DNA from: Candidatus Adlerbacteria bacterium
GTDB lineage: Bacteria > Patescibacteriota > Minisyncoccia > Phycocordibacterales > SBAW01
Length of the DNA: 64,000 nucleotides
Direction: 5' to 3'
Assembly (NCBI GenBank): GCA_963749085.1
Contig: CAVVLG010000003.1
Coordinates: 80,235 to 144,234, forward strand
Shown here: piece by piece, positions 3,270 to 47,140 of the stretch
How positions within the stretch are numbered: the first letter of the stretch is position 1
How the letters are laid out: each line of letters starts with the position of its first letter
The notes under the pieces: model-generated
Database searches by the model: none
What the model was told of the DNA's origin: nothing
The model's input: only the letters and a program-made list of their open reading frames with translations
Made by a program: the position numbers and the translations under genes

Positions 3270-3306
3270 ATATGCGGGAAGACTCTCCCGCGATGGAGGA
3301 ACTCTA

Positions 3307-3885: not shown

Positions 3886-3918
3886 CGCCTAATTATAAGC
3901 TACGTTTCACCTATGCCT

Positions 3919-9437: not shown

Positions 9438-9438
9438 G

Positions 9439-10122: not shown

Positions 10123-10903
10123 GAAAAAAATATGCGAGCGCTGCGCCGAGCACCAAGAACGGCGCGAACGGTATCTCACTCCTCATTGTAAGATGGGAGC
10201 GCCCCGATTGCCATGAAAGCCGCTGGTATAACAGCATGGCAAGACCCACGAAGGCTCCACTCCAAAAAGCCAGCGTGAGCGCGGTAAGACCAGCGTACAG
10301 CCCGAGCAACCACCCTATACTGAGTTCAAGTGCGCCATCGCCCCATCCCATCCACCTGCCCCAGGATATGAGGGAGAGGCAAACAAGCGGGGACGCAAGC
10401 AGGGGACCACTCAACAGTACCGAAACGCTTGGCATCATAAACTGAACTCCTGCGCCAAAAGAGAAAAAAAGAGAAATTAACGCCAATAGGGCCAAAAAAC
10501 CCGAACACGACCAAGGAATAATGTTGTGCTTGATATCATAGACGACAACGAAAAGAAGGACCATCCATACCAACAGCCAGAAGGCGTAGGCGAGTGGTTG
10601 TACGTTTGTGCCGAAGACCGGATAGGAAAAGTAGACGAGCAGCGAGAGCAGAGCAGCGATACATTCGACCAGCGGATACTGCCAGGAAACTTTCGAGCCA
10701 CACTGTCGGCACCTGCCGCGTAAAAAGATAAATGAGAAAATGGGAACCAGATCGCGTGCGCTGAGCGTTTTATCACAACTCATACACCGCGAACGGCCGC
10801 GGACGATTGACTTACCAGTATTAAAGCGAAATGACAGCGCGTTGATGAAACTCCCGAGAATGGCGCCGAACACAGCGGCGGCGACAAAAAAGAAAATCTG
10901 CAT
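10085..10903 (-). CDS. pilD: prepilin peptidase (A24 family)
   Basis: N-terminal Cys box 'CMSCDKTL...CRQCGSKV' plus polytopic membrane domain; ATG overlaps the TGA of the upstream pilin (ATGA). Confidence 0.85.
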   Translation of the reverse strand: MQIFFFVAAAVFGAILGSFINALSFRFNTGKSIVRGRSRCMSCDKTLSARDLVPIFSFIFLRGRCRQCGSKVSWQYPLVECIAALLSLLVYFSYPVFGTNVQPLAYAFWLLVWMVLLFVVVYDIKHNIIPWSCSGFLALLALISLFFSFGAGVQFMMPSVSVLLSGPLLASPLVCLSLISWGRWMGWGDGALELSIGWLLGLYAGLTALTLAFWSGAFVGLAMLLYQRLSWQSGRSHLTMRSEIPFAPFLVLGAALAYFFHVDFFQQISVLF

Positions 10904-24400: not shown

Positions 24401-24716
24401 GGGGCGGAGGTGGTTTGTGTAAGTGTTTGCTTACTACCCGAACATGACATTGTCGCACGAGTAGCAGGACCGACGAAGCCATACCCAGTAGTATCAGGAG
24501 AACCTGAGGAGACAATGCCGTGAGATGCCTGGTAGTTTTGTATTGCCTGTTCGGTCAGAGGACCGAAGTAGCCGGTGGTGGGACTTATGCTTAAAAATGA
24601 TTGCAGTTGGGTGACTTCCCCATTAGTTGTCGCATCAGTGACTCCGGCATACAGGTTATACGACAGGTCGATGCAGGAAGGGGCAGATGCGGTGGAGACA
24701 CTAGAACCAGTCTCAA
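21448..24716 (-). pseudogene. C-terminal portion of an IS-disrupted giant cell-surface protein (PG-binding-like segment + 10 Ig-like repeats + C-terminal domain)
   Basis: The reading frame is open from the stop just inside the IS left IR; the first ATG (MSCSGSK) lies at 24450 with no signal peptide; a 'LQSFLSISPTTGYFGPLTEQAIQNYQASHG' PG_binding_1-like segment is encoded upstream of that ATG; 9 identical plus 1 variant 79-aa repeats 'APTISSFSASPSTITAGNSTTLSWSATGATSFLINGT...TYTLTATNSAGSVTATATVTV'. Confidence 0.7.
22170..24410 (-). repeat. tandem 237-bp coding repeats (at least 9 nucleotide-identical copies)
   Basis: Three alternative-frame ORFs (22232, 22469, 22706) translate to identical 78-aa strings, and five more (22943, 23216, 23699, 24008, 24245) share the same 53-residue N-terminus and sit on the same 237-nt register, so the unit is repeated with perfect or near-perfect nucleotide identity. 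Confidence 0.9.
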
Positions 24717-25153
24717 AAATAATGTTTGAGTAATAGCATGATGCACGCGAGCTTCACGAAGGCGGCAAAGTTCTGCAGTTTGTATTCGTAGCGAGTCACG
24801 AGCTTTCTCCAGTTGTGCATCCACGCGAACAGCCGCTCAATCTTCCACCGGCGCTTGTAGGAGCGCAGCGCCCTGCCGTCCTGTGTTGCTCTGCGCACCC
24901 GGCCTCTGCGATGCGGTGAAATGAGTTTGATGCGGTATTTGTTCAGGAGCGTTCCATCCAGCGGATCGGAATCATATGCTCGGTCAGCCGTGAGGCGAAG
25001 CGGATTCTGTCGGGTAAATCGCCGGGCAAGCGTGTCTTCAACCAACCGGACTTCGCTCGGAGAAGCAGAGGCCACATAGACGGCGACTGGAAGAGAGCCT
25101 TCGTCCGCAATCGCCATGATCTTGGTGCCTTTCCCACGCTTCGTGGGTCCCAC
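24713..25153 (-). CDS. IS5-family transposase OrfB (DDE catalytic part, -1 frame)
   Basis: '...LTADRAYDSD...YKRRWKIERLFAWMHNWRKLVTRYEYK' DDE_Tnp_1 C-terminal signature; begins just downstream of the slippery site. Confidence 0.75.
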   Translation of the reverse strand: MGPTKRGKGTKIMAIADEGSLPVAVYVASASPSEVRLVEDTLARRFTRQNPLRLTADRAYDSDPLDGTLLNKYRIKLISPHRRGRVRRATQDGRALRSYKRRWKIERLFAWMHNWRKLVTRYEYKLQNFAAFVKLACIMLLLKHYF

Positions 25154-25485
25154 GCCAAGACCCCCTTTTTTGCCCCCGCGAAGGTGGCATCGAGAAAGCA
25201 GCTCCTGAGCTTGATGCGCCCCCGGTATTCCATGTCCATGGCCAGGGCTTCGACGATGCGGTCAAAGGCGCCGCTCTCCACCCACTGCTGGAACCTGCGA
25301 TGGCAGGTCTGGTAGGGCGGGTAGTCTTTCGGCAGGTGCTTCCACTGGGCGCCGGTCTTCAGTGCCCAGAGGATACCTTCCAGTATCTTGCGGTCGTCCT
25401 GCCGGGGACGGCCGCGGGTTTCCAAACGCTTGAGGGGTGTGACAAACGGAGCGATGACGCTCCACTGCTCGTTGGTGAGAGGCAT
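24943..25485 (-). CDS. IS5-family transposase OrfA (N-terminal DUF4096-type region)
   Basis: 'MPLTNEQWSVIAPFVTPLKR...RKILEGILWALKTGAQWKHLPKDYPPYQTCHRRFQQWVESGAF', the typical IS427/IS1031-group N-terminus; contains 'GAKKG' = GGG GCA AAA AAG GGG slippery heptamer. Confidence 0.75.
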   Translation of the reverse strand: MPLTNEQWSVIAPFVTPLKRLETRGRPRQDDRKILEGILWALKTGAQWKHLPKDYPPYQTCHRRFQQWVESGAFDRIVEALAMDMEYRGRIKLRSCFLDATFAGAKKGVLAWDPRSVGKAPRSWRLRTKALFQSPSMWPLLLRAKSGWLKTRLPGDLPDRIRFASRLTEHMIPIRWMERS

Positions 25486-26815: not shown

Positions 26816-28147
26816 ATGGACACATCAACAATAACGCTGCGTAAGCCCCAAGCGGGCAATCGGCAAGAAGTTAAGCAGGTGCAAGTGCGGTACTGCCTGT
26901 ATGCAAGAAAGAGTACCGAGTCAGAGGAACGCCAAGTATTAAGCATTGACTCCCAAATCAAGGAGATGATGCAGATGGCGGAGCGGGAGAATCTAGAAAT
27001 CGTCGAGATAAAGCGCGAGAGCCACTCGGCCAAGGAGACCGGCCAGCGGCCCATCTTCAACGAGATAGTAGATAACCTGCGTGCCAATAAATACAACGGT
27101 ATATTAACGTGGGCACCGGATCGCATCAGTAGAAACGCCGGTGACTTAGGTTGCATTGTCGACCTCATGGACGCGGGCAAGCTGCATGAGATACGCACGT
27201 TCAGCCAGCGATTTAGCAATAACCCGAATGAAAAGTTCCTCCTAACAATTCTGGGTGGTCAGGCAAAACTTGAAAACGATAACCGAGGCATCAATGTAAA
27301 GCGCGGACTACGCGCTCGCTGCGAGATGGGCCTGTGGCCCGGGTACCCGCCGCTAGGTTACCTTAACCAAAAGCGCATGGATAAGAAATGCCAGCTCATC
27401 GTGGACCCCTTGCGTGCGCCCGTGGTAAAGCAGATATTCGAAAAGGTGGCACATGAGAAGTGGAGTGGCAGACAGGTATACAACTGGCTCAAGTTCAAGC
27501 TCAACTTCTACACGCGCGGAAACAAGCCGCTCACACTCTCGGGTGTGTATCGTATCCTCGATAATCGGTTCTACTACGGGCTCTTCGAGTACCCAAGAAA
27601 AAGCGACAACTGGTACCAGGGGCAACATACGCCGCTAATCAATCAGGAATTATGGGAGAAGGCGCAGGCGCAGCTGACGCGGGACAACATTGTCAGAGAG
27701 AACAAGGAATTCTCCTTCACCAAGCTATTCACGTGCGGGTATTGCGGAAGTGGTATCAGCGCCGAAGAGAAGTGGAAGCCACTCAAGGACGGTACCTCGG
27801 CGCACTACATCTACTATGGCTGCACGCGTGCCAAGGATCGGAACTGCAAAAACAAGTACATACGAGAGGAGGAGTTGATTGAGGAGCTGCTGAAAATCCT
27901 CGATCAAATCAACCTCAATGAGTTGGGTGTTCGCCACAAGATGGAGGACGAGATACGCCGGTTCAACAAGCTGCAGAAAATCGTGAGCGGGACGTCAGCC
28001 ACCACGTTAGTCGAGGACGACGACATCAACATACGCCGCTACGCCAAATACCTGCTCAAGGAAGGGAGCGTTTCTGACAAGCGGGAGCTCTTGGCGAACA
28101 TGCGAAGTAGATTGCTATATAAGGATAAAACGATTACGTTCGCCTAA
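26816..28147 (+). CDS. large serine recombinase (copy 1)
   Basis: Resolvase catalytic N-domain ('YARKSTESEERQVLSIDSQ', catalytic Ser context), recombinase domain and a C-terminal Zn ribbon 'CGYCGS...YYGCTRAKDRNCKNKY'; 443 aa. Confidence 0.85.
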   Translation: MDTSTITLRKPQAGNRQEVKQVQVRYCLYARKSTESEERQVLSIDSQIKEMMQMAERENLEIVEIKRESHSAKETGQRPIFNEIVDNLRANKYNGILTWAPDRISRNAGDLGCIVDLMDAGKLHEIRTFSQRFSNNPNEKFLLTILGGQAKLENDNRGINVKRGLRARCEMGLWPGYPPLGYLNQKRMDKKCQLIVDPLRAPVVKQIFEKVAHEKWSGRQVYNWLKFKLNFYTRGNKPLTLSGVYRILDNRFYYGLFEYPRKSDNWYQGQHTPLINQELWEKAQAQLTRDNIVRENKEFSFTKLFTCGYCGSGISAEEKWKPLKDGTSAHYIYYGCTRAKDRNCKNKYIREEELIEELLKILDQINLNELGVRHKMEDEIRRFNKLQKIVSGTSATTLVEDDDINIRRYAKYLLKEGSVSDKRELLANMRSRLLYKDKTITFA

Positions 28148-28259
28148 CGAAAATGCGGCCACCATGCCGCTCTTTTCGTTCAACTTTTTGTGCTGAGCAT
28201 TGCGGGTCGCACTGACACATCGACATTGCGGGAACACGCCGATACAAAGTTGTCAATGC

Positions 28260-28345
28260 GGAGAGGGTGAGATTCGAACTCACGGTAGGGTTTCCCCCAC
28301 GCCGCATTTCGAGTGCGGTGCCTTCGACCACTCAGCCACCTCTCC
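28260..28345 (-). tRNA. tRNA-Ser (anticodon CGA)
   Basis: Class II tRNA fold by hand: acceptor GGAGAGG/CCTCTCC, anticodon loop CUCGAAA, long variable arm, T-arm GAGTTCGAATCTC; 3' end faces the recombinase gene. Confidence 0.75.
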
Positions 28346-33332: not shown

Positions 33333-33440
33333 CATGCGATTGGTATCTTCTGATAAAGCAATGTTCCGACGAACAAGTTCTTTTAATTCATCTATTTGCG
33401 GATCCACAAAAAAAGTATAGCACGCTCTCTTTGTGCCCCC

Positions 33441-33508
33441 GGGCGATACCGTACTGACTTCGATGGGGGCCGGTATCGGTTCCCTGCGCCACAGCGCTGT
33501 GCCCCCGG
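33441..33508 (+). repeat. 68-bp direct repeat, copy A (followed by a 22-bp partial second unit)
   Basis: gggcgataccgtactgacttcgatgggggccggtatcggttccctgcgccacagcgctgtgcccccgg is identical to 46984..47051; it contains an 8-bp IR (cgataccg/cggtatcg) and the 12-bp palindrome cacagcgctgtg. Confidence 0.85.
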
Positions 33509-33788
33509 GCGATACCGTACCCCATTCGGTAAGCACCCCAAGGGTTCTTTGATGTACATATAGTATGCGATGGCGAAGGGGGCCGGAATGCCTCAGTTGC
33601 GGGAGATTTTGAAGATTTTTGGGGCGATTCGATGAGCCGAGAGGAGGGGCGGTACCGTACCAGATGAAATGCCTAAAAATGCCTAAAAATTGGATGGTTT
33701 GTGCTTGGGGAGCAGAAATTTTAGGCTTTTGCCGTTCGAGCGATTTTACCCGGAATGGGACACGGAACGGCGTATCAAATGTGTAATT

Positions 33789-34301
33789 TCAGCCACTTGT
33801 ATCCCTACCCTTGGTATCAAGCAGCTGTTTGAATGTGGCATCCTTCACACGCCACAGATAGAAGGTCTTGCGGGTGATGTGAGAGTACTGGCAGGCCTCG
33901 GTTACTTGCATACCCGCCTTCTCGAATGAGAGCAGAAAGGAGAGCTTTTTGATGAGGGTGCGGAGTTGTGGACCTCTCAGTTTTGCCATGCGCTCAAGCC
34001 GTGCCTTGTTGGCCTGCTCCTGCCATTCCGCACGGTACTTATACTTGCCATACATAGGAGGAATAGAGAAATAGTTGGCAATCCAGTGCGTGGCTGACGG
34101 CATGGACCAGTTAAGACCTATAGCTTCTGCAGGTGATACAGGACCGTTGGAATCCCCATAATACAGATTACCCGATTGCTGTTGTTGGCGTAGAGTGGTA
34201 TTGGAGCCGGCGGGAGAGAGAGGAGCGTTGGAGTCGGCGTAGTAGAGATTGCCGGATTGTTGCTGGCGTATATGGGTGTTGGAGCCGGAGGCGGTTCTCA
34301 T
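33789..34301 (-). CDS. HTH-domain protein (transposase/terminase-small-subunit N-terminal-like), possibly a fragment
   Basis: C-terminal 'LRTLIKKLSFLLSFEKAGMQVTEACQYSHITRKTFYLWRVKDATFKQLLD' HTH; N-terminal half is Gln-rich with a 21-aa internal duplication; the true start may be the internal 'MAKLRG'. Confidence 0.3.
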   Translation of the reverse strand: MRTASGSNTHIRQQQSGNLYYADSNAPLSPAGSNTTLRQQQQSGNLYYGDSNGPVSPAEAIGLNWSMPSATHWIANYFSIPPMYGKYKYRAEWQEQANKARLERMAKLRGPQLRTLIKKLSFLLSFEKAGMQVTEACQYSHITRKTFYLWRVKDATFKQLLDTKGRDTSG

Positions 34302-34374: not shown

Positions 34375-34635
34375 CTAACCCTGATGACCAAATAGAAGCG
34401 CGACAATAAATAAGATTGTGAGCGCGACACAAAATAACGAAGCGATATATAATAGTATGCGGTATAACAGCGTGAGATACTGTTCTCGTTTTGGTTGCGC
34501 TGACGAACCAAATCCGGTAGCTTGAAGAAGCTTTCTTGCAAGAAAGATTCCTAGCGACCGATTGAAAACGGTACATGCAATAGCGATCGCAATAAACGCT
34601 ATTAATAAAATTGAATTACCTACTAAAGTGGCCAT
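34375..34635 (-). CDS. putative immunity protein for the orphan Rhs-CT (2-TM, paralog of 36289..36522)
   Basis: 86 aa with two hydrophobic helices; shares 'VGN..I..I.IAI..TVFN' and downstream 'Y..L.Y' pattern with the gene after the main rhs; AT-rich. Confidence 0.45.
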   Translation of the reverse strand: MATLVGNSILLIAFIAIAIACTVFNRSLGIFLARKLLQATGFGSSAQPKREQYLTLLYRILLYIASLFCVALTILFIVALLFGHQG

Positions 34636-34684
34636 ATGAGATTATTTTATACGAATAATATTTATAAGTTTGTACCGTCATATA

Positions 34685-35458
34685 CTACTTAATCACGCTC
34701 GGTGTCGACAGACTCGGCTGGGTATACAAATTTGCATTGTATGTATTGATCGCCTTTACAGCCGCGGCGAACCCAGTATCGCTAAGATTAGCACCTGAAG
34801 TATTAGCATAACTGATAACCGCATTCGAGATCTGACTTATATTAGTACCTCCCGAAGAAGATTGAACACCAAATGACTCGTTCGCTAGCATAGTTGGACC
34901 AAAGTATGCGGGCGTTTTATAAACAACTGATTCAGAAGCACCCATATCGAAACCGAATGTGGTAGTTTCTGTCCATGGAGTTGGCGGTCCAGCTTTAGGA
35001 TGTTTCCAGTCAGAGAAATCAAGTTGTGCCTCTGATGAAATTGACTCTCCTATGCCTGGAGTAAGGTCAGCTGAAGGTGAAGTGTATAAACCTGATGCGT
35101 CGAGGGAACCGCTCTTACTATACGTGCCCTGATAATTAACACCTAAAGCGAACCCAGCCCATGGGCCACCTTCAAATTGAATGCCCCAAGGATCGGTATC
35201 GACATTTGCACCTGCTACCACACCAAACCCTGCTCCGAGACTAACCGTCCCTCCGTATATATCTTTTCCTAAGGGGTCACTATTGGTAATGGGGTTATCT
35301 CGTCCATAGCTATAAGAGTTGAGTTGTTGTGGGTCCATTAATAGCTGGCCTTGCTGCTGTTGCGTCAATTGTCGAAGCTGAGTCGGATTTCCTACCGACA
35401 AACCTGCATGGATACGTCGGAAAAAGGATATTGTGCACCTTGATTCTGATCCGCGCAC
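34685..35458 (-). CDS. orphan Rhs C-terminal toxin cassette (core tail + DPxGL + variable CT domain)
   Basis: 'LLMDPQQLNSYSYGRDNPITNSDPLGKD' matches the Rhs core-end / aspartyl autoproteolysis motif and the main rhs tip 'LLADPQQLNAYSYSRDNPTTTSDPQGLG'; followed by a distinct but related Gly/Ala-rich CT. Confidence 0.7.
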   Translation of the reverse strand: MRGSESRCTISFFRRIHAGLSVGNPTQLRQLTQQQQGQLLMDPQQLNSYSYGRDNPITNSDPLGKDIYGGTVSLGAGFGVVAGANVDTDPWGIQFEGGPWAGFALGVNYQGTYSKSGSLDASGLYTSPSADLTPGIGESISSEAQLDFSDWKHPKAGPPTPWTETTTFGFDMGASESVVYKTPAYFGPTMLANESFGVQSSSGGTNISQISNAVISYANTSGANLSDTGFAAAVKAINTYNANLYTQPSLSTPSVIK

Positions 35459-35491
35459 TGCTTCCCAATCCTATTTCGACACAAGCTGAAG

Positions 35492-35523
35492 AAGAGGAGA
35501 GCCCGAACGCGTTGCACCGCGTT
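35492..35523 (-). terminator. strong hairpin (13-bp perfect stem) immediately upstream of the orphan cassette
   Basis: gagcccgaacgcg-ttgcac-cgcgttcgggctc; C/U-rich tract follows on the minus strand. Confidence 0.35.
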
Positions 35524-35788
35524 CGGGCTCAAGAGTCTGATTACCCATCCACCACTCTGAGAAGGAGAGGAACGTGATAACGCAGACCCCAACTGTACGG
35601 ATTGGTCAAAACGATTGGCGTCAGAAGCGCGCGAATCGCTCTTCTGACGTTCAGTATCGCACGGCAACCGCCATGCGCGAAGTGAGTAATCCCCAACCGA
35701 CCACAACATTGTGCCTGCCGATCGAGGCGCCGGCAGGTGGCTGGGATGCCTACAACAGAGCAGTTCTTGCCGTAATCCTGAGATCAAG

Positions 35789-36358
35789 GCGGCGATGCTT
35801 GAAACGTGCGTATTCGGAATAATTGAAAGTACCATGCTCGATCCGATTAAGCTGCGGACGTGTATGGACTTTTTCAATGAAAAAAAACTCGCGTATGACA
35901 ACGAGACCAACAAGTTTAAGGGAGAGCGCGAAGAGTTAGTGTTGCGCATACCGCTCTTGCATAAAGGCGAAGTGATCGACACGAGCGTTAAGCAATTCTG
36001 CGAAGCCGCTCGGGTGCGTTTTGAGAAGTGCGTTGACTTCGATACCAAGCGGCAATTCTTACTCGACTACGTAGAGAAGATAATATTTACTGATGATCAT
36101 GTCGCTGTATACGGATCGGTACCCGTGCACATGAAAGCGTATACGGATGCTGACGCTCCCATTGAGACGAGCAAAATTGAATTCAAGCTTGAGGGCGACA
36201 TTTCCTCGGTGGAGCGATTTGCGACTTACAAAAAGAAAAGCGGTGGGAGCCCGATCACTATGGCGGAATTTAATAACCGCATTGCAAATCATTTATTAAA
36301 TAACAGAGAACCGATAAAAAGGAGCACTGCGACGGTACAGAAAAACGAGAAGAAATAA
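35789..36358 (+). CDS. hypothetical protein (convergent to the rhs locus)
   Basis: K/E-rich, balanced composition; the minus-strand ORF on the same DNA is Ser/Arg/Leu-rich and looks antisense; start taken at internal Met 'MLETCVF'; 3' end overlaps the putative immunity gene by about 70 nt. Confidence 0.4.
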   Translation, partial: AAMLETCVFGIIESTMLDPIKLRTCMDFFNEKKLAYDNETNKFKGEREELVLRIPLLHKGEVIDTSVKQFCEAARVRFEKCVDFDTKRQFLLDYVEKIIFTDDHVAVYGSVPVHMKAYTDADAPIETSKIEFKLEGDISSVERFATYKKKSGGSPITMAEFNNRIANHLLNNREPIKRSTATVQKNEKK

Positions 36359-36522
36359 AATAAAACTCTGTAACAAATTACAAAGAATCGTTCCTGTCGC
36401 AATGACGACGGCAATATCATCATAAACTTCTCTGCAAAACGATTTGCCAGTTGTTTATTAAATACGGTAAAAACAATGGCTATGATTACGAATACAAGAG
36501 AAGCGATTATGTTACCAACCAT
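36289..36522 (-). CDS. putative cognate immunity protein of the main Rhs toxin (2-TM)
   Basis: 77 aa, 'MVGNIIASLVFVIIAIVFTVFNKQL...VICYRVLFYFFSFFCTVAVLLFIGSLLF'; begins 44 bp after the rhs stop; AT-rich. Confidence 0.5.
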   Translation of the reverse strand: MVGNIIASLVFVIIAIVFTVFNKQLANRFAEKFMMILPSSLRQERFFVICYRVLFYFFSFFCTVAVLLFIGSLLFNK

Positions 36523-36565
36523 AGAATTAAATTTTTAATGCTAATAAATATTGGGGTTCCATGGG

Positions 36566-39500
36566 CTATTTGGTGCCAGGTGTCGATGCACTCATTTGAG
36601 AGGAAAATAGGTTTGAATTGTAGGTGTTGATGGCTTTTACAGCCGCAGCAAAACTAGGATCAGCCAAGTTAGCACCAGTGGTATTCGCATAATTGATAAC
36701 TGCGCCAGAAAGTTGGCTAATATTACTACCTCCAGAACCAGAGGAAGGATTGGGGGAAGAACCTACGAAGCTTTGGAATTGGGAAATGACGTTACCAATA
36801 AAGCCAAGACTAAACGGTGACGCTTTGTATAGAACGGCATCGGTAGCCCCGGCATAGGCACCAAATGCGGGCACAACGTTGCCGACCGGTAATGCCGATT
36901 TAAGTTTAAATTTGCCGTCTTGCCAAGTCAGAGGCGCTTCGGACGAATAGCTTGCACCCACACCTGCGGCAGCTCCTGCTGAGACTTGGAAGTAAAGGCC
37001 CGCAGGATCCAATGACCCATTGGGGTCATACGTGCCTGAAACACGAGCACCTATGCCAGGCCCTATTGTGGGACCGTAACTGAATTGTCCTAGCCAAGAA
37101 TTTGTATCAATATCAAAGTTCGCTACCCCTCCGCCAAATATATACCCGGCATTTATGCTTCCCTCAAGAACACCGAGCCCTTGCGGATCACTAGTCGTTG
37201 TAGGATTATCCCTACTATAACTATACGCATTCAGCTGTTGTGGATCTGCTAGTAACTGATATTGGCTCTGGTCTAGAAGCTGCCCAACTTGATTTGGATT
37301 GCCGAGAGACAAAAATACAGGATCTTCCGAAAGGAACTGCCCCCTACTCCCGTCATAGTACCTCGCGTTCAGATAATCGAGACCAGTGTCATTGTCATAC
37401 ACCTGACCCACATACTTGCGCAGTGATGAGTAGCCCGCTAATTGGTCGTGGTTGCTAATGGATCCGTAGGGGGTGTAGTCGGTGACCTCCTGCACGTGGT
37501 TGTTAGAATCTGCGGTGACAGAGGCGGAGTTGAGTGTGTCGACGTAGTTGTAGTTGATAATCCCGCTTCCCGTAGCGCCGGTTATGTCAGCAACATCTTG
37601 ATTATTAAGGAAGATGTGCTTGGTGGGGAGCATTGAGACACTGTCGGTATTATAGTAGTCGTTGGGATAATAATAGGTGGTGCTTGCGGTGCCCACTCTT
37701 ACCCGATTGTCATTCTCATCGTAAGTGTAGGTGTCAGTGCCTGCCGTCGTGGTTGAGATGCTGAGGCGGTTGCGCCAATCCCAAGCACCTTGGAAGCCCG
37801 AGAGTCCTTGAGTGACGTTACCATTATTATCATACGTAATGGTGGTCTGGCCTACCTGCGTAGGGGCGTCTGGGTTGGCATAGCTAGAGCCTGTATTGCC
37901 TTGGTAGAGGTAGGTAGTAGTGGCGAATGTCCCGCCGAGTGTGGAGGAGGCGTCGGTGAGTACGTTACCTAAGGCGTCATAGGTCCACTGCTCGATTGTG
38001 TTGCGGCCAGCATTGGGCGCACCAGAGGAGATGTCAGGAGTAGTAGATGCCTGTATGAGTCTATTAAGACCATCGTAGGTGTAATCGACCACTTTGGCAG
38101 TTTTAGTGAAGGACGCATCGACAAGGTATGTGATATTTCCATTGGCATCATAAGTATAGGAGAGATCCTGTACACGGTTTCCCGGAGTCATGAAATAGTC
38201 GTTACCGTTGGACCAGGGAGACGGATTGTTATTTTGATCCCAGACTCTAATGCGCCAGAAATATTTGTTGGCATCGGTTCCGTTCGAAGGCAGCGTAGGT
38301 CCTGCATACGTTGATGTCGCCGTTCTTTGACCATTTTGCGTTTGCGGCGACAGAGTTACTTCGCCCGAATCCCATAAAGGAGTTGCCCAACTTCCTCCTC
38401 TTTGGATTACCTGAATTTCATAGGCTGAAGCTGTTGATGTGCCGGACGAATCATAGATGCCATTGAAGTACGGAGGAGGTGCCGTAACTTTGGTGTTTTG
38501 CTCCGCAAAGAAGTGGAAATTGTCGAACCACACATGACCGGTCGTTGTCCCTAGATCGAAATCGAAACGTCCATCTACATCTCCCGCATTTGGCGTAAGC
38601 GTAATTACGTAGTGATTCCAATTGGGATATAGATTGAAAGGGGTGAAGGGTGTAAATTGATTGTTAGGAGAGTGATTTTGATCGAGAACAACATCCGCAC
38701 TCCTTTGAGAGGTTGATTTGGCATCAAAGGCTAGTATGTACGTGGTACCAGTCGCCAGTGCCTGCTGTTGCCAAAACTGCACGTACCAATTTGTACTGGT
38801 AGCCTGGAGAACATTTATATTCGCCGAACAGCTCCCGTTGGTCGATGTAGTGCAATCCGTGCTTTCAGTCGCCTCCGAAGAGCCGTTATCTGTCCAGAAA
38901 CCATAGCCATAGTTGTTTCCTGTGGGATCGGAGATATTTTCAAACGATGGATTACGCACTGTAGAAAGACTATCAGGAATAAGTTCGACATCATCCAGCC
39001 AATACGTTGCACTATTAACCGCCCCGAGCGAAAATATCAGTCGTGAGTTTAGGTCAGTCGTCGTCGCGGTCGAGCTAAAGTAGTACGAGTACTGTTTCCA
39101 GTTTGGCGTGACGGTAGGGTTCACGTCGAGCCCGTAGCTTAGATATTGCCCGCTATTTTGCTGTAACGTTGCTTCGATAGTCGTCGTGGCCGATGCTTTT
39201 GCGCTGAATTCCAAAGTGTAATTGACGTTGGGATCGACGCGAAGCAGCTGTAGGAGTTGTGGTAAATAGTTGACACTTGTCGAAGCAACAACAATTTTAT
39301 CTGAGCAGGCACCAGTGAAGGCAGTTGTGCAGTCGATAGAACTGCTTGAAATACTTGAACCTTCATTAAACACCCAACTTGTGGAAGAGGCGTACTCAAA
39401 TGAGTCGTCGTAGGTTACCGAATTTGAGAACCAATAACCATCGGTATTGAGATTTGTTGAAGCAAATGGAGGAGTGGGGCCTGTTGAGGATGCGGCGTTG

Positions 39501-42500
39501 GCAAAAGTTTGCGTGATAAAGCCCATGGCATTGCCTACCGCAGTGCCCCAAGCTCCCGAATCTGGGAGGAGTGTCACTTTGTGCGTTAATCGATACAGGT
39601 GGTTCGCATCATAGGTATCGGTAGTAGTAGCACCACTGCCCCACAAAATGGTAGCCTCCTGGCCGAGCGGAGAGTAAAAAACATTTGAGACAACCGTACG
39701 CCATGGCGATGACGTTGCCTCGCGCTGCTGTATTTCTTGAACCAACCCTTGAGGACCTAGCGTGTATAACACCTCGGACTGGTCGGGATATACGATGTCG
39801 GTCTGATCGCCCTGTCGGTCGTAGGAATATGACGTGGTGTATGTTTGTCCCGCAATCTGTTTTACTTCTTGTGCAGGCTTCCCCAGAGGATTGTAGCTGT
39901 CGGTCGTTACAATAGTTGCATTCGCAGTTGTGGTTGCGATACAAATCAAGCCTATACCGTTTGAACAAGAATCATACTTATACGTTACCGAGTTTGCGCT
40001 GGCGGGCATGTAAGTAATTACGATGATACCCTGACCTCCCGTGCCCGCAGCACCGCCTACGTGCGTTGCCCCGCCTCCGCCTCCTCCACCTCCGCCTCCG
40101 CCGTACGTGCCGCCGTTTCCACCCGCTGAGCCGACTGCATCTCCTGTCGCGGACGCACCGCCGCCTCCGCCTCCGCTCGAACCATGAGACGCATCAAATT
40201 CTGTTCCGATGCCGCCAGCACACCCGACTGTTGCTGGAGTATTGTTTTGCCCCCCACCTCCACCACCGCCATTGGTACCGGCGGTGCATCCGGAACCACT
40301 GTCACCATTGCCGTGTCCTGTTCCGCTTGAATTGTTTCCGCCATTTGCTCCGTTACCTGTGCCTCCAGTACCATTCCCCGCCGTACCGCCGCCATTACCT
40401 CCTCCACCCGGCCCGGCCCCGCCAGTAGTATTTGCGCCTCCTTGCGCTCCCGCTCCGTTGGACCCTCCAGCACCGCCTCCCGCAGTTGGAGCCGCATGAG
40501 CGGCATACGTACCACCGGCTCCCCCCGCATATGTTGTCGAGCCTATAGACTGCGAAGTTAGACCTCCTACGCCAGAGGAGGTAGTACCGTTCCCCGCACG
40601 CCCCCATGAGCATGACAAAGAAGCGGTCGAGGAGGCGGTGCCGTTGAAATACGTTTCTCGAGCTTGCCCGACGGCAGTTGTCACTGACGTGGTTGTAGCA
40701 TCAGCTCCAATTGCGTAGGTTATGTTCCCTCCTGGCGTGAGAGATAGATTAGTGATCTTTGCATAGGCACCTCCACCTCCTGCGGCTCCACCCGCGCCTC
40801 CGTCGGCGACGCCTGCCGCGCCTTCGCCTCCTGATCCAACGCACTGGATAGTGTTGTTCGACGAGTTCCAGTTTGAGGGTACGTTCCAGGTCTGATTGCC
40901 TTTACCCGGATTAACGGTGAGGAAGATGACGGTGGCACCGCTTCCTCCGGTTCCTTCGGTCAACTCGCGATTGAGCGCATCATAAGTGTAGGTAGTTGTT
41001 TTGCCGTTGGGGTCAACTTTTTGCGTCACGTTGCCCGCAAGGTCATAGGTATAGGTCGTCGTGCCAAAAGTAGTGTCCGTCGCGACGTGAAGGTCCTGTG
41101 CCGTGAGTTGGCGATTGAGACCGTCATACGTGAAATTGCGGATATTGCCGCTGGCATCCGTCACTTCCGTGAGGTTATTTTTCAGATCGTATGCATATGT
41201 GGTCGTAGCGGACGTGGTGGTGGTGCTATGTTCAACCACATTGACCAGATTGCCGAACGCGTCATTCCAAAAATCCTTAAGATTGCCGTTAGGGTCCGTG
41301 ACCATGGTATGCCACGGATTATACACATAGGTTGTCGAACCGACCGCGTTATCGACGGAAGCGATTCTCTCCAATGGATCGTAGGTATAGCTGGTAAAGA
41401 GCGCGGTCGTTGTCGTAGGTGCCGCCCAAGACGTGCTTGAGGCAAAATATTGGAGGGATTCATCCACCAGCAAGCCGGAAGCACCGTACACATCATCTTT
41501 CACGGCATAGGTATTGGTTGGAGCCGCCTCCGTGCGCGTTTGTATGGTGCGGCCGAGACCATCAAAGTATTGGTATGAGACCGTGCTGGTTGCGGAGTTG
41601 AGATAGGAGGTCGTCGTGGTGTAAGTCGGGAAACCCGTGTCGGTATATGCGATAGTTGTATTCAAGTCAAGTGTGCTGGGCGTATTGAGGTCAGGCTGCA
41701 ACTTCTCACTAACGCGCCCGACCGGATCGTACACGGTGACATGCGTGAGCCCGTTGGGATCGGTCGTGGTCGCCACATTGCCAGTCCCATAATCGTACAT
41801 ATAACTAGTGGATTGGTTGAGCGCATTGGTCGAAGTGGCAGGGTAATAATTGAAACTGTCGAATGAATAGCTGGTTTGATTACCGTTAGGGTCAGTGCTG
41901 CTCGCCACAAGGCCGTAGGAGTTATATGACTTCGTCTTGCTCGCATAGGTACTTCCTGTAATCCAATCCTCCTCCTTAGTCTGATTTCCGAGTGATACAG
42001 ACCCCAGCGGTAGGCCGTCGTAGTAATACTGGGTTTCTGAAAGCTGAGTGCTACTCGCATTGGTAAGTATAATGTCGTCTTGCAGATCCAGCGTCGAGCT
42101 TGCATTGGTCGCATAGGTAATATTTTTGATGCTCTCATCATTGCTGCTGATAGTGGTGTACGTGCCATTGGAGCTGCCGTTTACTTGACCCAGATCCTCA
42201 ACCTGCGCGAGATCCCCTGTAGTGGTGGAGTACGTGTATTGAATGGCATGATCCATGTGATTGCTACCGCTGGGATCAAAATCCTGCGTCATTTGGTTAG
42301 CGAGAAAGACGAAATACCCGGTAGACGCGGTGGTTGAGGGAGTGGTGGTGGACGTAGTCCAGTCGTAGAAGGTGCGCTTCAGCAGCGTCCCGCTGGGAGT
42401 TTCGGTGTCTTCACGGAACACACGCCCAATTTGGGCATAGCTATCGCTCTGCTCGCCGTCGCCGGTCGTTACGCCGTTGCCTTGGTTGTAATAGGTGACC

Positions 42501-45172
42501 GTGGTGAAGTCGGGATGTGTCTCCTTTATAGTGTAGAAGCTTGCGAACTTCCTGTCCTGCGGAGCGTTCGCGTTGAAGTACAGAACGCCGCCATTGTAGG
42601 AATAATCGACTTCGGTGGTATTGTCGTCGTTATCACTGGTGAGGGTTTTTGACACCAATAGAAGCGAGAGTGGCAAATTGGGATTATTGCTCGTCTGGGG
42701 CGACGGAACATATGAGATCTGCTCGTTACCACCTTTGGGATAATTAATTTGCGTCAGTACGTCCTGGCGCGAAGCGTTGTTTATTTCATCGACATTGTCC
42801 GGCAACCCATCGCCGTTCCAATCGACATATTCGTTATCTATCTCAGTATCATACTGATTGTATTGAACGATGTAGGAAGGAAGCTGTATTGAACTCGTGG
42901 CCCACCCCGAGCCGGTATTAAGCCACACAATATCGATCCCATTCGAGACCGGCGCATTGCCGTGCACTCCACCGACAATCGGACTGTAATATGATTCGAC
43001 GAGATCCGGCAATCCATCGCCAGTGAGGTCTATAAACCGAAGACCGCGATCAAAGTATTGATGGCTGCCGCTGTTGTAATAATAGGTGGACGTGGCGATG
43101 TTCCAAGGCGAATTGCACGATCCCGCCGGGATCCATCCGGTCCCAGTATTCATACAGACATACGTATTGTTAGCATCCGAATACACCCAATCATCAAGGC
43201 CGTCGCCGTTGATATCAACGAGCTGGGAGTCCGTAACCGTACCACCAGCCGCGTCTGGAAACGGTTCCACTGCCGTAAAATCACCACTGGGGGTCCATGC
43301 GCTGCCGTTGCCCATATAGCTTGTACTCGCCGTAATACCTGAACCTGAAGGCAATGCTTCGACATAACCAGGGTATCCGTTCCCATCGAGATTTCCAAAC
43401 ATACCCGATGTGTAGGTTATGCCCGAGCCGGAATTGTAAAGGCCGAAGGGAGGGATGACCCCGTTTAACGTCGAAGAGGCGAGCACCGTAAAGGTGTAAT
43501 CGCCGTTAGTTCCTGACGTATTTTCGTATAGTGCCGCGCCATCCAGACCCTGATCATTATGCACGACATCCGCATAGCCGTCGCCGCTGACATCAACGAA
43601 TCTCGTGCCGCTTTCAACCGGAGTCTGCGTGCTACCAAGACAGGCCCACGTGTACGAAGGAGGCTCGCTGACGGCCGTGTTGTCTATATATAACTGCCCA
43701 GGACCTCCGCAGGAAGCATAGCCGGATATTGCCGTATCGTTTACGCCATCGCCATGCGATTGGGCTGCGATGTTAGATTGGTTTGCAGCATATCCAAAAT
43801 TATTTTGAAACGTCCATGTCACTGATGTGCTGGCATACTGGAACGTCGTCGCCGGAAGAGTCAGTTGGTTACCGTTGGCATCCTCGCCAGTTTCTTGGAC
43901 GCCAGAGAGAAGCGACCGATACCCATTATTTCCCGTCGTATATGAAAGAACATATTTGCGCACTAAATTGCCATTCACCTTTGCGTCAATCTCTGTGATG
44001 CGATAATTGGTTGTCACTTCAAAGGTCGGCCGGTAATCGATGAACGAGTCGGGACGGGTTGAAGTAGCAAACGTTATACTCATCACGCCCGTGGTTGTTC
44101 CGTTTCCGGTATACGTTATCTGGAAAGGATAAATCTGATCGTCGTTCTTGGCGTAGGTGTATGAGATGTCATTGCCGTTCGTATCCACAACCTGTTCAAG
44201 CATCCAGGTATATATCTGCGTTGAGCTGGCGGCATCAAACTGCTGTGCTTGGGTCGTGGTGCCGTATTCGTAGCGGGTGCCATCCTTGTCATAGGCGGTC
44301 CACGTGTCGTTTGAGAATACGTATTTGACGAAGCTGCCGTCATTGACACGCGCGATATACGTGCTCGAGTTGGAGGATGTGGCTAAAAGGGTTAATTCTC
44401 CGTCTTTAGAGGAGGTAAAATAGTTGTCCGTATAGAGCCTATCAGTACCCGTTTTATTAAGCCTCTGTATGTAGGGGATGGAGAGCGACCAGCCGTATCC
44501 AACCAGACTGTTGTCTTGCAGGTTTTGGCTGTTGTAATTGAGGGAGAAATCGGGCTGTAAGCCGTTGCGGCCGGGCGGAATATCGAGCGGTATGTTTTCC
44601 GTCAACGCGCCGCTCGTCTTGTCCACTTGAGGAGCAATAGTTTGATATGTGAATAGATATGGATTCGTAACTGTCGGTGGAGAACTACCACCGCTAGGAG
44701 GTGGAGGACCCGGAGGTTGGCTTGCTGGAGTGCTGGGAGTCGTTGGGCTGCTAGGGGCGGGCGTCGTTGGGTTACTCGGATTACTACCATTATTCGTATC
44801 ACTGTTATCAGTAGAGCTATTGTCGGTAGGACTTGTATCCACACTGGGCGTCGTGGCGTTATCCGCGCTGGGCGTCGCCTGATCGGATGAATCGCTCGGT
44901 TGTTGCGTCGATGCTCCTAATATATCGCCCAGTGGGGTGACTTTCGGCGTATCGGGCGTAGTATTTGCATCTGTCGATTGATCCGAGGACTGTGAAGAAT
45001 CAAAAGTTGCGGAAGCGTCAGTACCTGAGGAGGTGGAGCTCGGGTCCGTTATTGATGTCTGTGCATCCGCTGAAGGAGTGTCAGTCGCGCTCTGGGCAAA
45101 TATAGTGCTCACCGGAGAGAGCAATAAAGTTGCAAGCGTAAAGCCTGCGATAAGTTTTCTCACCGCCCACAT
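36566..45172 (-). CDS. giant Rhs/YD-repeat polymorphic toxin, TcB-TcC-fusion-like (SpvB + FG-GAP propeller + YD shell with Gly-rich insert, 2 CBM4_9-like and an FN3-like module + C-terminal toxin)
   Basis: Signal peptide 'MWAVRKLIAGFTLATLLLSPVSTIFA|QSA'; SpvB-type 'DFSLNYNSQNLQDNSLVGYGWSLSIP'; FG-GAP 'DVSGDGYADVV/DINGDGLDDWV/DLTGDGLPDLV'; many YD repeats (e.g. 'TYTYDLAGNVTQKVDPNGKTTTYTYDALNRE'); Rhs core end 'ARYYDGSRGQFLSEDP...NAYSYSRDNPTTTSDPQGL'. Confidence 0.85.
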   Translation of the reverse strand: MWAVRKLIAGFTLATLLLSPVSTIFAQSATDTPSADAQTSITDPSSTSSGTDASATFDSSQSSDQSTDANTTPDTPKVTPLGDILGASTQQPSDSSDQATPSADNATTPSVDTSPTDNSSTDNSDTNNGSNPSNPTTPAPSSPTTPSTPASQPPGPPPPSGGSSPPTVTNPYLFTYQTIAPQVDKTSGALTENIPLDIPPGRNGLQPDFSLNYNSQNLQDNSLVGYGWSLSIPYIQRLNKTGTDRLYTDNYFTSSKDGELTLLATSSNSSTYIARVNDGSFVKYVFSNDTWTAYDKDGTRYEYGTTTQAQQFDAASSTQIYTWMLEQVVDTNGNDISYTYAKNDDQIYPFQITYTGNGTTTGVMSITFATSTRPDSFIDYRPTFEVTTNYRITEIDAKVNGNLVRKYVLSYTTGNNGYRSLLSGVQETGEDANGNQLTLPATTFQYASTSVTWTFQNNFGYAANQSNIAAQSHGDGVNDTAISGYASCGGPGQLYIDNTAVSEPPSYTWACLGSTQTPVESGTRFVDVSGDGYADVVHNDQGLDGAALYENTSGTNGDYTFTVLASSTLNGVIPPFGLYNSGSGITYTSGMFGNLDGNGYPGYVEALPSGSGITASTSYMGNGSAWTPSGDFTAVEPFPDAAGGTVTDSQLVDINGDGLDDWVYSDANNTYVCMNTGTGWIPAGSCNSPWNIATSTYYYNSGSHQYFDRGLRFIDLTGDGLPDLVESYYSPIVGGVHGNAPVSNGIDIVWLNTGSGWATSSIQLPSYIVQYNQYDTEIDNEYVDWNGDGLPDNVDEINNASRQDVLTQINYPKGGNEQISYVPSPQTSNNPNLPLSLLLVSKTLTSDNDDNTTEVDYSYNGGVLYFNANAPQDRKFASFYTIKETHPDFTTVTYYNQGNGVTTGDGEQSDSYAQIGRVFREDTETPSGTLLKRTFYDWTTSTTTPSTTASTGYFVFLANQMTQDFDPSGSNHMDHAIQYTYSTTTGDLAQVEDLGQVNGSSNGTYTTISSNDESIKNITYATNASSTLDLQDDIILTNASSTQLSETQYYYDGLPLGSVSLGNQTKEEDWITGSTYASKTKSYNSYGLVASSTDPNGNQTSYSFDSFNYYPATSTNALNQSTSYMYDYGTGNVATTTDPNGLTHVTVYDPVGRVSEKLQPDLNTPSTLDLNTTIAYTDTGFPTYTTTTSYLNSATSTVSYQYFDGLGRTIQTRTEAAPTNTYAVKDDVYGASGLLVDESLQYFASSTSWAAPTTTTALFTSYTYDPLERIASVDNAVGSTTYVYNPWHTMVTDPNGNLKDFWNDAFGNLVNVVEHSTTTTSATTTYAYDLKNNLTEVTDASGNIRNFTYDGLNRQLTAQDLHVATDTTFGTTTYTYDLAGNVTQKVDPNGKTTTYTYDALNRELTEGTGGSGATVIFLTVNPGKGNQTWNVPSNWNSSNNTIQCVGSGGEGAAGVADGGAGGAAGGGGAYAKITNLSLTPGGNITYAIGADATTTSVTTAVGQARETYFNGTASSTASLSCSWGRAGNGTTSSGVGGLTSQSIGSTTYAGGAGGTYAAHAAPTAGGGAGGSNGAGAQGGANTTGGAGPGGGGNGGGTAGNGTGGTGNGANGGNNSSGTGHGNGDSGSGCTAGTNGGGGGGGQNNTPATVGCAGGIGTEFDASHGSSGGGGGGASATGDAVGSAGGNGGTYGGGGGGGGGGGATHVGGAAGTGGQGIIVITYMPASANSVTYKYDSCSNGIGLICIATTTANATIVTTDSYNPLGKPAQEVKQIAGQTYTTSYSYDRQGDQTDIVYPDQSEVLYTLGPQGLVQEIQQREATSSPWRTVVSNVFYSPLGQEATILWGSGATTTDTYDANHLYRLTHKVTLLPDSGAWGTAVGNAMGFITQTFANAASSTGPTPPFASTNLNTDGYWFSNSVTYDDSFEYASSTSWVFNEGSSISSSSIDCTTAFTGACSDKIVVASTSVNYLPQLLQLLRVDPNVNYTLEFSAKASATTTIEATLQQNSGQYLSYGLDVNPTVTPNWKQYSYYFSSTATTTDLNSRLIFSLGAVNSATYWLDDVELIPDSLSTVRNPSFENISDPTGNNYGYGFWTDNGSSEATESTDCTTSTNGSCSANINVLQATSTNWYVQFWQQQALATGTTYILAFDAKSTSQRSADVVLDQNHSPNNQFTPFTPFNLYPNWNHYVITLTPNAGDVDGRFDFDLGTTTGHVWFDNFHFFAEQNTKVTAPPPYFNGIYDSSGTSTASAYEIQVIQRGGSWATPLWDSGEVTLSPQTQNGQRTATSTYAGPTLPSNGTDANKYFWRIRVWDQNNNPSPWSNGNDYFMTPGNRVQDLSYTYDANGNITYLVDASFTKTAKVVDYTYDGLNRLIQASTTPDISSGAPNAGRNTIEQWTYDALGNVLTDASSTLGGTFATTTYLYQGNTGSSYANPDAPTQVGQTTITYDNNGNVTQGLSGFQGAWDWRNRLSISTTTAGTDTYTYDENDNRVRVGTASTTYYYPNDYYNTDSVSMLPTKHIFLNNQDVADITGATGSGIINYNYVDTLNSASVTADSNNHVQEVTDYTPYGSISNHDQLAGYSSLRKYVGQVYDNDTGLDYLNARYYDGSRGQFLSEDPVFLSLGNPNQVGQLLDQSQYQLLADPQQLNAYSYSRDNPTTTSDPQGLGVLEGSINAGYIFGGGVANFDIDTNSWLGQFSYGPTIGPGIGARVSGTYDPNGSLDPAGLYFQVSAGAAAGVGASYSSEAPLTWQDGKFKLKSALPVGNVVPAFGAYAGATDAVLYKASPFSLGFIGNVISQFQSFVGSSPNPSSGSGGSNISQLSGAVINYANTTGANLADPSFAAAVKAINTYNSNLFSSQMSASTPGTK

Positions 45173-45585
45173 TTTTCTTTCCCACAAAAAATGAGGTGCC
45201 CTGCTCATAAAATTTTGCCCTGCCAAAAAACATATACCGGAGACCCAATGGTAACAGGGAAAACGAAACAGCAAGGAAATCTCTCCGGATTTTTATTTCA
45301 CCACTGAACTATTTTCCTGTTATTAAGCCACACATGAGACTAGGTGCGCAAATCTCGGCAAAGCGACATATGAAGTTTTTATGCAAACAAGTTTTCATAT
45401 CTCGGATTTCCGAACAGAGCAAAATAATAGTGCTTGATAATTTTCAAATCTGACGCGTTTATTAAAAAATTATCCACAGATCGCTATTACAAGTTACCAA
45501 CTAGGGGACCGGAATGGGGTCTGGACTCACAGCGGGTGTTGCGTCATTCATTGACCTTGCAGATTAGCAAGTAACCACAAGGTAT

Positions 45586-46983: not shown

Positions 46984-47051
46984 GGGCGATACCGTACTGA
47001 CTTCGATGGGGGCCGGTATCGGTTCCCTGCGCCACAGCGCTGTGCCCCCGG
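46984..47051 (+). repeat. 68-bp direct repeat, copy B
   Basis: Identical to 33441..33508; starts 61 bp after the recombinase stop. Confidence 0.85.
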
Positions 47052-47140
47052 CAGGAATTGCACCCACATTGACCCCTTAGGACGGGGCGGTTCTATCTGT
47101 TGAACTACGGGGGCTATAAACGCCACCACTGTAGCACACG

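Follow-up and report, generated by a model that had tools for sequence, protein, structure and literature searches.

The rhs locus described here raises the question of how a giant Rhs protein comes by the toxin at its C-terminal tip. Few bacterial weapons are as widespread as Rhs toxins, and the capture of new tips has so far not been tied to an enzyme. The locus lies in a 64,000-nucleotide stretch of DNA, referred to below as the window, from Candidatus Adlerbacteria bacterium, a member of the Patescibacteriota (assembly GCA_963749085.1, contig CAVVLG010000003.1, positions 80,235 to 144,234 of the forward strand). An earlier examination of the letters and open reading frames (ORFs) alone, which we call the sequence-only reading, had described a very large rhs gene, a small gene for a protein with two transmembrane (2-TM) segments, and a second, displaced copy of the tip with a 2-TM gene of its own. 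Its ORF coordinates for the large gene and the neighbouring genes stand, and its observation was borne out in every detail that could be checked. It did not notice the remnant of a serine recombinase located between the first immunity gene and the orphan tip, and it missed the genomic island that contains the locus. We consider it likely that the gene encodes a TcB-TcC-type cocoon toxin with a rare, tentatively membrane-active tip, that a cassette arrived and displaced an older tip, and that the whole is carried on an island at a tRNA-Arg gene. The locus alone is a further member of the TcdB/TcaC-type toxins in an unusual host; what adds interest is the apparent association of one recombinase clade with Rhs tips, together with cassettes elsewhere that begin with a conserved leader, a lead that rests on eight contexts.

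Downstream of the full-length gene and on the same strand lies the orphan, which consists of a 5'-truncated core fragment, a C-terminal toxin domain (CT2) and a second immunity gene candidate (Table 1). This is the displaced-tip arrangement that the sequence-only reading had recognised. That reading had staked its case on an alignment between ORF 34685..35458 and the C-terminus of the large protein, and the ORF matches the last 245 residues of the main protein at 48% identity (E 4e-52), with homology starting about 40 residues ahead of the DPxG[LK] motif (DPLGK in the orphan). The second tip copy is therefore real, but it is not the different toxin that the label "divergent CT" implied, since CT2 and the tip of the main protein (CT1) are 48% identical and belong to one rare family. 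Their nucleotide sequences agree in no more than two short patches, one of 127 nt at 76% identity in the CT tail and one of 62 nt at 71% in part of the core, which makes an in-place tip swap by homologous recombination unlikely now. The earlier description of the layout as one used for toxin swapping thus holds for the layout but not for the swapping, as these patches are a poor substrate for homologous exchange. A relative of the orphan, at comparison locus L004 (comparison loci carry L numbers and proteins P numbers), shows 78% nucleotide identity to it and retains a leader and about 60 extra core residues upstream, and so the window orphan has lost its 5' part.

On the plus strand, ORF 35711..36358 aligns to a 612-residue serine recombinase that is encoded beside the only close relative of the CT (tblastn E 1e-13; hidden Markov model (HMM) E 1.6e-42). 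Since only residues about 386–579 of this enzyme, which comes from locus L002, are matched, the window copy is no enzyme. It is a stump without the catalytic (resolvase), recombinase and zinc-ribbon domains, it has no match in Pfam, NCBIfam or PHROGs, and about 33 internal residues are also absent relative to full-length genes. The stump is convergent with immunity gene 1, with a 70-nt overlap at its 3' end. We asked whether it could be a copy of the recombinase of the island itself, and rejected this on an E-value of 0.026 and about 24% identity, which place it in another clade. We named this clade rec580 and traced it using custom HMMs, two collection scans and context look-ups. Its members are about 580–620 residues long and carry the C-terminal motif QFCxxARxRFxKCxDFxSKRQFLLD.

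In all eight contexts with enough flanking DNA the rec580 gene adjoins an Rhs core tail. These contexts are the window, L001 (identical to L002 and L003), L006, L014 (the same locus as L005), the two units of a contig merged from L011 and L009, L029 and the contig of P0104. No Rhs tail was found near four more distant serine recombinases with flanks of at least 8 kb. The packing of immunity gene and recombinase is tight, with 3' overlaps of 70, 63 and 32 nt or a gap of 10 nt. Searching with a profile of the C-terminal part of rec580 gave 177 proteins, most of them short C-terminal-only forms, which makes the stump state a common one; at least 10 of them have intact frames and come from contigs of more than 10 kb. 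The short forms start at differing points (HMM positions about 264, 303 and 358), and a fixed breakpoint was rejected because the positions differ between loci. At L028 no more than 6 nt separate a stump from a truncated orphan core tail; the window has a junction of this kind too, with 351 nt of unmatched, palindrome-bearing DNA in between. The palindrome (DNA fold −18.8 kcal/mol, z −4.7) was considered as a repeated element or as a relative of the leader, and neither it nor the spacer has another copy in the window or the comparison loci, or any match to the leader. For the orphan copy, which the sequence-only reading had called promoter-less, a consensus scan gave no sigma-70-like site on its strand, the minus strand; such a scan does not validate promoters in this phylum.

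Other loci preserve more complete versions. L014 has an intact form of the window layout, with rhs, CT, immunity gene, a small ORF, a convergent recombinase, four cargo genes and then a leader-led orphan tip with its immunity gene. The merged L011/L009 contig spans 30 kb and contains two units and a third fragment, in which the displaced fragments all start at one position of rhs, just ahead of YTYAGTGDANPHAPT. A dyad-symmetric attachment (att) site was sought at the shared junction of this contig, and only a weak ACCT-N4-AGGT motif was seen. At L029 a giant SpvB-propeller-LamG-Rhs protein is followed by a 233-residue membrane protein and a convergent 182-residue stump. Elsewhere, orphan tips are preceded by roughly 30 codons that are conserved as a leader (M-x-[VL]-A-x-D-[LI]-x-x-x-x-S-L-x-A-M-W-x-A), and a TACAAT box lies some 10 nt ahead of the ATG of this leader. 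We found the leader at L001/L002, L004, L006, L009, L014, L015 and L026 (positions 10001, 13103 and 15717) and in the proteins P0005 and P0011, that is, in unrelated lineages. Some loci have it in frame with the tip, others out of frame, and the point at which it joins rhs varies from locus to locus while staying fixed within any one array. Three such cassettes stand in tandem at L026, along with insertion sequence (IS) elements and toxin-antitoxin modules. L006, from an Alphaproteobacteria metagenome-assembled genome, contains a duplicated 3' recombinase fragment (9353–9756 and 10268–10673, 90% identity) around a 173-residue ORF. Most cargo genes have no match in the three profile libraries.

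Two further features of these loci are recorded here in their own right. L006 has 1,060-nt direct repeats (3184–4243 and 17085–18144, 99.6% identity) set 13.9 kb apart and bracketing the recombinase and orphan-tip region. An ORF of 122–150 residues (…LRxRLAKLMALxCFRNxxLEDFHAG…) lies between immunity gene and recombinase at L014 (9749..10201, minus strand), L011 (6946..7314) and L009 (5927..6295); it has no match in Pfam, NCBIfam or PHROGs and no copy in the window, and could be a recombination directionality factor.

From these contexts it is possible, and we put it forward tentatively, that rec580 is the mobility enzyme of self-contained Rhs tip cassettes (leader, rhs 3' end, toxin, immunity gene and recombinase) that move between phyla, including Patescibacteria, Alphaproteobacteria and others, and install new tips, and that the window holds the fossil of one such event. 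If this is true, the C-terminal displacement model would gain from rec580 the enzyme, and with it the circular intermediate, that it has been missing since 2009, and the company that the clade keeps with Rhs tips across phyla makes the question testable. The nearest competitor is ordinary C-terminal displacement, in which the orphan would have arisen by homologous recombination or local duplication and the stump would be debris of an unrelated mobile element. The main-plus-orphan layout is indeed the classic one (PMC2935791; PMC5727410), a stump that has lost its catalytic parts would be inactive, and mobile-element debris such as that of L026 is common at these loci. We nevertheless regard this as unlikely, since debris would not be expected beside Rhs tips in eight contexts out of eight and in unrelated lineages, nor packed so tightly against the immunity gene, and the nucleotide identity of main gene and orphan is too low for a recent homologous exchange. 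The arrival of a tip-immunity-recombinase cassette would fit the origin of the orphan better.

Less probable again is that the 187-residue ORF 35798..36358 works as a protein in its own right, retained beside immunity genes as, for example, a regulator or an inhibitor of incoming recombinases. The short length of most of the 177 homologs, and the intact frames of those on long contigs, are what such a protein would predict; the variable start points, the internal gap of the window copy and the existence of full-length genes bearing the same tail all speak against it.

We also examined the architecture of the main protein. The start codon is likely the ATG at 45172, from which the protein would have 2,868 residues and which by eye has a purine-rich stretch, GGGAAAG, upstream and begins a signal-peptide-like MWAVRKLIAGFTLATLLLSPVSTIFAQ; a Ser/Thr/Pro-rich linker of about 150 residues, also read by eye, follows. 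The public gene call for this protein (P0002) begins only at residue 217 and so omits the export signal. The profile searches that had been proposed as a check gave significant matches to RHS_repeat (E 2.3e-20; TIGR01643 E 2.5e-7) and SpvB (E 6.8e-19), in agreement with the SpvB domain and YD-repeat shell named by the sequence-only reading, and its two CBM4_9-like modules were recovered above threshold (E 2.3e-8 for residues about 1953–2084 and 2.5e-9 for 2105–2243) when segments of the protein were scanned alone, and only then. The FG-GAP motifs it had listed are visible as four copies of DxxGDGxxD, although the FG-GAP_3 profile scores 22.8 bits against a Pfam threshold of 26.9. Its "YFWRIRVWD" module exists, but the label FN3-like is replaced by Ig_Rha78A_N (E 7.6e-7), and its glycine-rich insert is also present but extends over 330 rather than 280 residues; the insert (residues 1441–1770) has zero matches in Pfam, NCBIfam and PHROGs. 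The canonical core end and variable C-terminus of roughly 200 residues are as described (TIGR03696 E 1.9e-12; tip of 202 residues), with NPTTTSDPQGL at residues 2690–2700 closing the Rhs core. DPQGL is the expected self-cleavage site. A sequence search of the Protein Data Bank returned the Rhs cocoons Tse15, Tse5 and RhsA, the carbohydrate-binding module of a laminarinase (1gui) and, at the SpvB region, YenB (4igl).

The TcdB/TcaC class of polymorphic toxins combines a signal peptide, SpvB, an integrin-like propeller and RHS (Zhang et al. 2012, PMC3482391), and at its N-terminus the window protein shows the signal peptide (by eye), SpvB and propeller motifs of this class. On its sequence it is a TcdB/TcaC-type (TcB/TcC-like) Rhs polymorphic toxin of a Patescibacterium, with RHS repeats, a variable C-terminal toxin and an adjoining candidate immunity gene as further points of likeness. 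Within the class it is set apart by phylum, Patescibacteria being absent from the table entry for the class in PMC3482391, by the modules inserted in its shell (two CBM4_9, one Ig-like and the 330-residue glycine-rich module), and by the rare tip family, which is without a Pfam or NCBIfam model. Homologs at L027 and L029 are 40–47% identical over the shell, have no glycine-rich insert and carry Laminin_G_3 in place of CBM4_9. In the L029 homolog DPSGL leads into another CT, and the immunity gene is another one as well, so that the search of relatives for the same core with other tips, which the sequence-only reading had proposed, found such a case.

The tip itself belongs to a small family. 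A word-indexed search of 5.8 billion proteins gave one relative of the CT and an exhaustive profile search of 1.84 billion representative proteins gave 27, while scanning the CT alignment against GTDB genomes and JGI metagenomes gave zero matches. Neither CT1 nor CT2 has a Pfam, NCBIfam or PHROGs family, and CT1 lacks a Pfam match even at E 10. The tip is modular, with a Gly/Ala/Ser-rich middle followed by a tail of about 45 residues, NISQLSxAVxxYAxTPGANLxDxxFxxAxxAINxYN, that also ends Rhs tips with unrelated middle parts (P0012, P0015, P0019, P0021–P0023, P0025 and P0026). Its recurrence suggests that these tips share a module used in delivery, targeting or the binding of an immunity protein, and that some common step of delivery or immunity has gone unrecognised. 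In P0017 (218 residues) a multi-pass membrane region at the N-terminus runs into the last ~90 residues of a P0021-type Rhs tip, conserved tail included; the protein appears to be a gene fusion made by rearrangement at an orphan tip. Structure prediction points tentatively to a small Vap-like or OMP-like (outer-membrane-protein-like) beta-barrel plus the conserved tail. Membership of CT1 in the Vap family by sequence was rejected, given the missing Pfam match and 9–10% identity; the likeness is in fold only.

The two candidate immunity proteins are 36% identical to each other (E 1e-10) and have no match in Pfam, NCBIfam or PHROGs. The 77-residue 2-TM gene that had been reported 44 bp downstream of rhs is present at a spacing of 43 nt from the stop, its proposed paralog is the 86-residue gene beyond the orphan tip, and the AT-richness attributed to both is evident from GC contents of 0.34 and 0.40 against 0.52 for the window. 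CT family and 2-TM family occur together in the window (twice) and at L001, L014, L026 and L027, and candidate toxin and immunity gene therefore travel together. This co-inheritance at six loci, together with the replacement of the CT among homologs at L029, which is a signature of toxin-immunity polymorphism, makes it improbable that the protein is mainly a teneurin-like adhesin for host attachment, with a structural or signalling CT and unrelated 2-TM membrane proteins, even though lectin-like CBM modules, an Ig-like module and a long Ser/Thr-rich stalk would suit an adhesin and Patescibacteria live attached to hosts, with type IV pilus genes nearby in this case. Most improbable of all is a BC component of an ABC-type Tc toxin against a eukaryote with its TcA pentamer encoded elsewhere, for although SpvB, propeller and RHS are the TcB/TcC architecture and YenB is matched at the SpvB region, there is no TcA-like gene within 64 kb, the N-terminus has a Sec signal, and polymorphic toxins that bacteria use against one another are marked by a small, cognate membrane immunity gene and by an orphan tip that comes with an immunity gene too.

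The whole locus is the cargo of a 13.6-kb island, as indicated by repeats at both ends, the overlap with a tRNA-Arg gene and an intact recombinase. The unit is bounded by perfect 68-nt direct repeats at 33441–33508 and 46984–47051, and the right copy overlaps the 3' end of tRNA-Arg(CCT) by 10 nt. The 11-mer TGTGCCCCCGG, which is the 3' end of this tRNA, occurs twice at the left boundary. The intact large serine recombinase shows the domains Resolvase (E 2e-20), Recombinase (E 7.7e-17) and Zn_ribbon_recom (E 1.4e-5) and a PHROG integrase match (E 1.9e-63), and is probably the integrase of the island; it is about 24% identical to the rec580 clade and 58% to a paralog at 26816..28147. The last gene inside the island (33789..34301) has an internal 78-nt duplication ("RQQQSGNLYY.DSN.P.SPA" twice; repeat 34180–34213 and 34258–34291) ahead of its helix-turn-helix (HTH), and could encode an excision or regulatory factor of the island.

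Taken together, we propose a Sec-exported, single-chain TcB-TcC-type Rhs cocoon in which SpvB, propeller and YD shell would enclose the 202-residue toxin, to be released by a cut at DPQGL. The two CBM4_9, the Ig-like and the glycine-rich modules would be looped out of the shell, where they would probably tether the particle to glycans on the surface of a neighbouring cell or of a host. We infer, as the sequence-only reading had envisaged, that delivery is contact-dependent and that targeting is by glycans. As a working mechanism suggested by the predicted fold, CT1 may be a small membrane-active barrel, tentatively Vap-like or OMP-like, that harms the target membrane and is blocked by the 2-TM protein, which would neutralise it in the producer's own membrane. 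The downstream core tail, CT2 and immunity gene 2 would then be the older tip, displaced when the resident rhs was joined by a mobile cassette in which an rhs 3' end and CT1 were accompanied by immunity gene 1 and a convergent large serine recombinase; the cassette recombinase would afterwards have lost its 5' two-thirds, and the whole 13.6-kb unit would be a tRNA-Arg island with a different serine recombinase.

Several observations weigh against this proposal. The layouts equally fit a Campbell-type homologous insertion of a circular cassette, with the recombinase serving for excision or transfer only. No att site was identified for the rec580 clade, the leader was not found in the window, and in the merged L011/L009 contig the recombinase points the same way as rhs instead of being convergent. 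For the island, the 68-nt length of the direct repeat would be unusual in a serine-recombinase site. None of the large ORFs in the 64-kb window is TcA-like or has a Pfam match to such a translocator. The fold of CT1 comes from modelling on 7 sequences, in which only one of the five models exceeds a pLDDT (predicted local distance difference test) of 45, Foldseek against the Protein Data Bank gave no significant match for it (every E-value above 0.01), and the CT has no hydrophobic helix.

Comparison with known systems places these points in context. The YenB/YenC TcB-TcC cocoon has the same SpvB N-terminal domain and, as predicted for the window protein, a propeller gate, a YD shell around the toxin and self-cleavage at the end of the Rhs core. 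The window protein differs in being one polypeptide with no TcA within 64 kb, and its candidate immunity gene and orphan tip point to a bacterial target. The known C-terminal toxins of WapA are nucleases. The proposed reading of the window protein has a parallel in WapA of Bacillus subtilis and Streptococcus suis (PMC12704120), an Rhs/YD protein that monoderm cells export by Sec and whose polymorphic CT is paired with a cognate immunity gene; competition through it needs cell contact (PMC12704120). WapA is without SpvB and propeller, and in the window protein the CBM4_9 modules would provide binding to wall or glycan. Tse5 of Pseudomonas aeruginosa (PMC10684867), an Rhs cocoon carrying a membrane-active C-terminal toxin, offers an analogy for the action of CT1, but is delivered by a type VI secretion system, and no sequence similarity of its CT to CT1 was found. 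The Vap proteins of Rhodococcus equi (VapB, 4cv7; VapG, 5aeo) are 9–10% identical to the CT1 model, which is of moderate confidence, and are free secreted proteins rather than Rhs cargo.

Enterobacterial rhs arrays show the same order of a full gene followed, on the same strand, by a 5'-truncated core, alternative CT and immunity gene (Jackson 2009, PMC2935791; Steele 2017, PMC5727410). In the window, by contrast, a specific serine recombinase clade lies between the tips, and leaders occur on many orphans elsewhere. Integrase-like genes have been seen near Rhs loci of bee-gut bacteria, their role being left open (Steele et al., PMC5727410), and XerC/D recombinases next to polyimmunity loci (Zhang et al., PMC3482391). 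Our literature search gave no paper linking serine recombinases to Rhs tips or combining Rhs, serine recombinase and orphan; papers on polymorphic toxins and serine recombinases mostly concern prophages and do not address Rhs tip cassettes. SCCmec with CcrAB and Tn4451 with TnpX are elements moved by large serine recombinases, and their insertion point is the 3' end of a conserved gene. They resemble the proposed rec580 cassettes in that a large serine recombinase rides on a small cargo cassette and that the target gene would have its 3' end replaced or restored on insertion; for rec580 the target would be rhs itself.

An ultra-small, host-dependent Patescibacterium thus devotes 8.7 kb of a genome that is probably smaller than 1 Mb, on a mobile island, to a toxin cocoon predicted to bind glycans, which bears on how episymbionts compete among themselves or deal with their hosts. 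The reduced lineage guessed at by the sequence-only reading is supported by the nearest named LepA homologs, which at 77–80% identity all come from Patescibacteria, Paceibacterota or Parcubacteria.

Table 1. Coordinates of the features of the rhs locus and its island, as positions in the window
Feature	Position	Strand	Description or basis
Left island boundary	33432..33520	.	68-nt repeat copy inside 1.35 tandem copies of a 66-nt unit
170-residue ORF, last gene inside island	33789..34301	-	Weak HTH_23; like HTH of small terminase subunits and transposases
Immunity candidate 2, 86 residues	34375..34635	-	Two hydrophobic segments, GC 0.40; ORF and hydrophobicity
Orphan toxin domain CT2, 192 residues	34688..35263	-	Same family as CT1
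Conserved C-terminal tail, ~45 residues (orphan)	34724-34852	-	Family alignment
5'-truncated Rhs core tail of orphan	35264..35401	-	LSVGNPTQ...NSDPLGK; TIGR03696 region, alignment to main
Spacer, 351 nt	35402..35752	.	Perfect 13-bp-stem palindrome at 35499-35530
3' stump of rec580-clade large serine recombinase	35753..36358	+	Aligns to residues about 386-579 of 612
Immunity candidate 1, 77 residues	36289..36522	-	Two hydrophobic segments, GC 0.34; ORF and hydrophobicity
Whole rhs ORF	36566..45274	-	2,902 codons counted from TTG
Toxin domain CT1, 202 residues	36569..37174	-	Directly after DPQGL; residues 1-122 predicted eight-strand beta meander
Conserved C-terminal tail, ~45 residues (main)	36605-36733	-	Family alignment
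Rhs-associated core (TIGR03696)	37175..37477	-	Residues 2600-2700, E 1.9e-12
Ig-like module (Pfam Ig_Rha78A_N)	38207..38440	-	Residues 2279-2356, E 7.6e-7
Two CBM_4_9 carbohydrate-binding modules	38546..39418	-	Residues about 1953-2084 and 2105-2243
Glycine-rich insert, 330 residues	39965..40954	-	Residues 1441-1770, 33% Gly
FG-GAP-like beta-propeller region	42785..43597	-	Four DxxGDGxxD motifs visible
SpvB domain (N-terminal domain of TcB)	44135..44617	-	Pfam, residues 220-380, E 6.8e-19
Signal peptide of rhs protein	45092-45172	-	Read by eye
Intact large serine recombinase, 445 residues	45586..46923	+	Divergent from rhs; gene end 60 nt from right repeat
Right island boundary	46984..47114	.	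68-nt repeat 46984-47051 and tRNA-Arg(CCT) 47042..47114 (-)

The source contig is 305,831 bp long, and the genes around the island are housekeeping genes and those of a type IV pilus. The pilus genes (16123..18006 and 20238..21317, both on the minus strand; PilB/T2SSE ATPase and PilM) lie about 15–25 kb from the toxin island. The paralogous large serine recombinase (26816..28147, plus strand, 443 residues) lies about 100 nt from the 3' end of tRNA-Ser (28258..28345, minus strand), with a fragment of an IS4/5-type transposase and a peptidoglycan-binding protein beside it (associated region 24943..25485, minus strand). This region may be a second tRNA-linked island; no direct repeat of at least 20 nt flanks the recombinase. 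ORF 21448..24450 (minus strand, 1,000 residues) consists of a 237-nt unit repeated eight times in tandem, with 100% identity among several of the copies; it gives Ig-like (I-set) profile matches and is probably a repetitive surface protein, in which the assembly could have collapsed or expanded identical repeats. ORF 11582..12982 (minus strand, 466 residues), with an MBG domain and RTX calcium-binding repeats, is a candidate secreted or surface protein.

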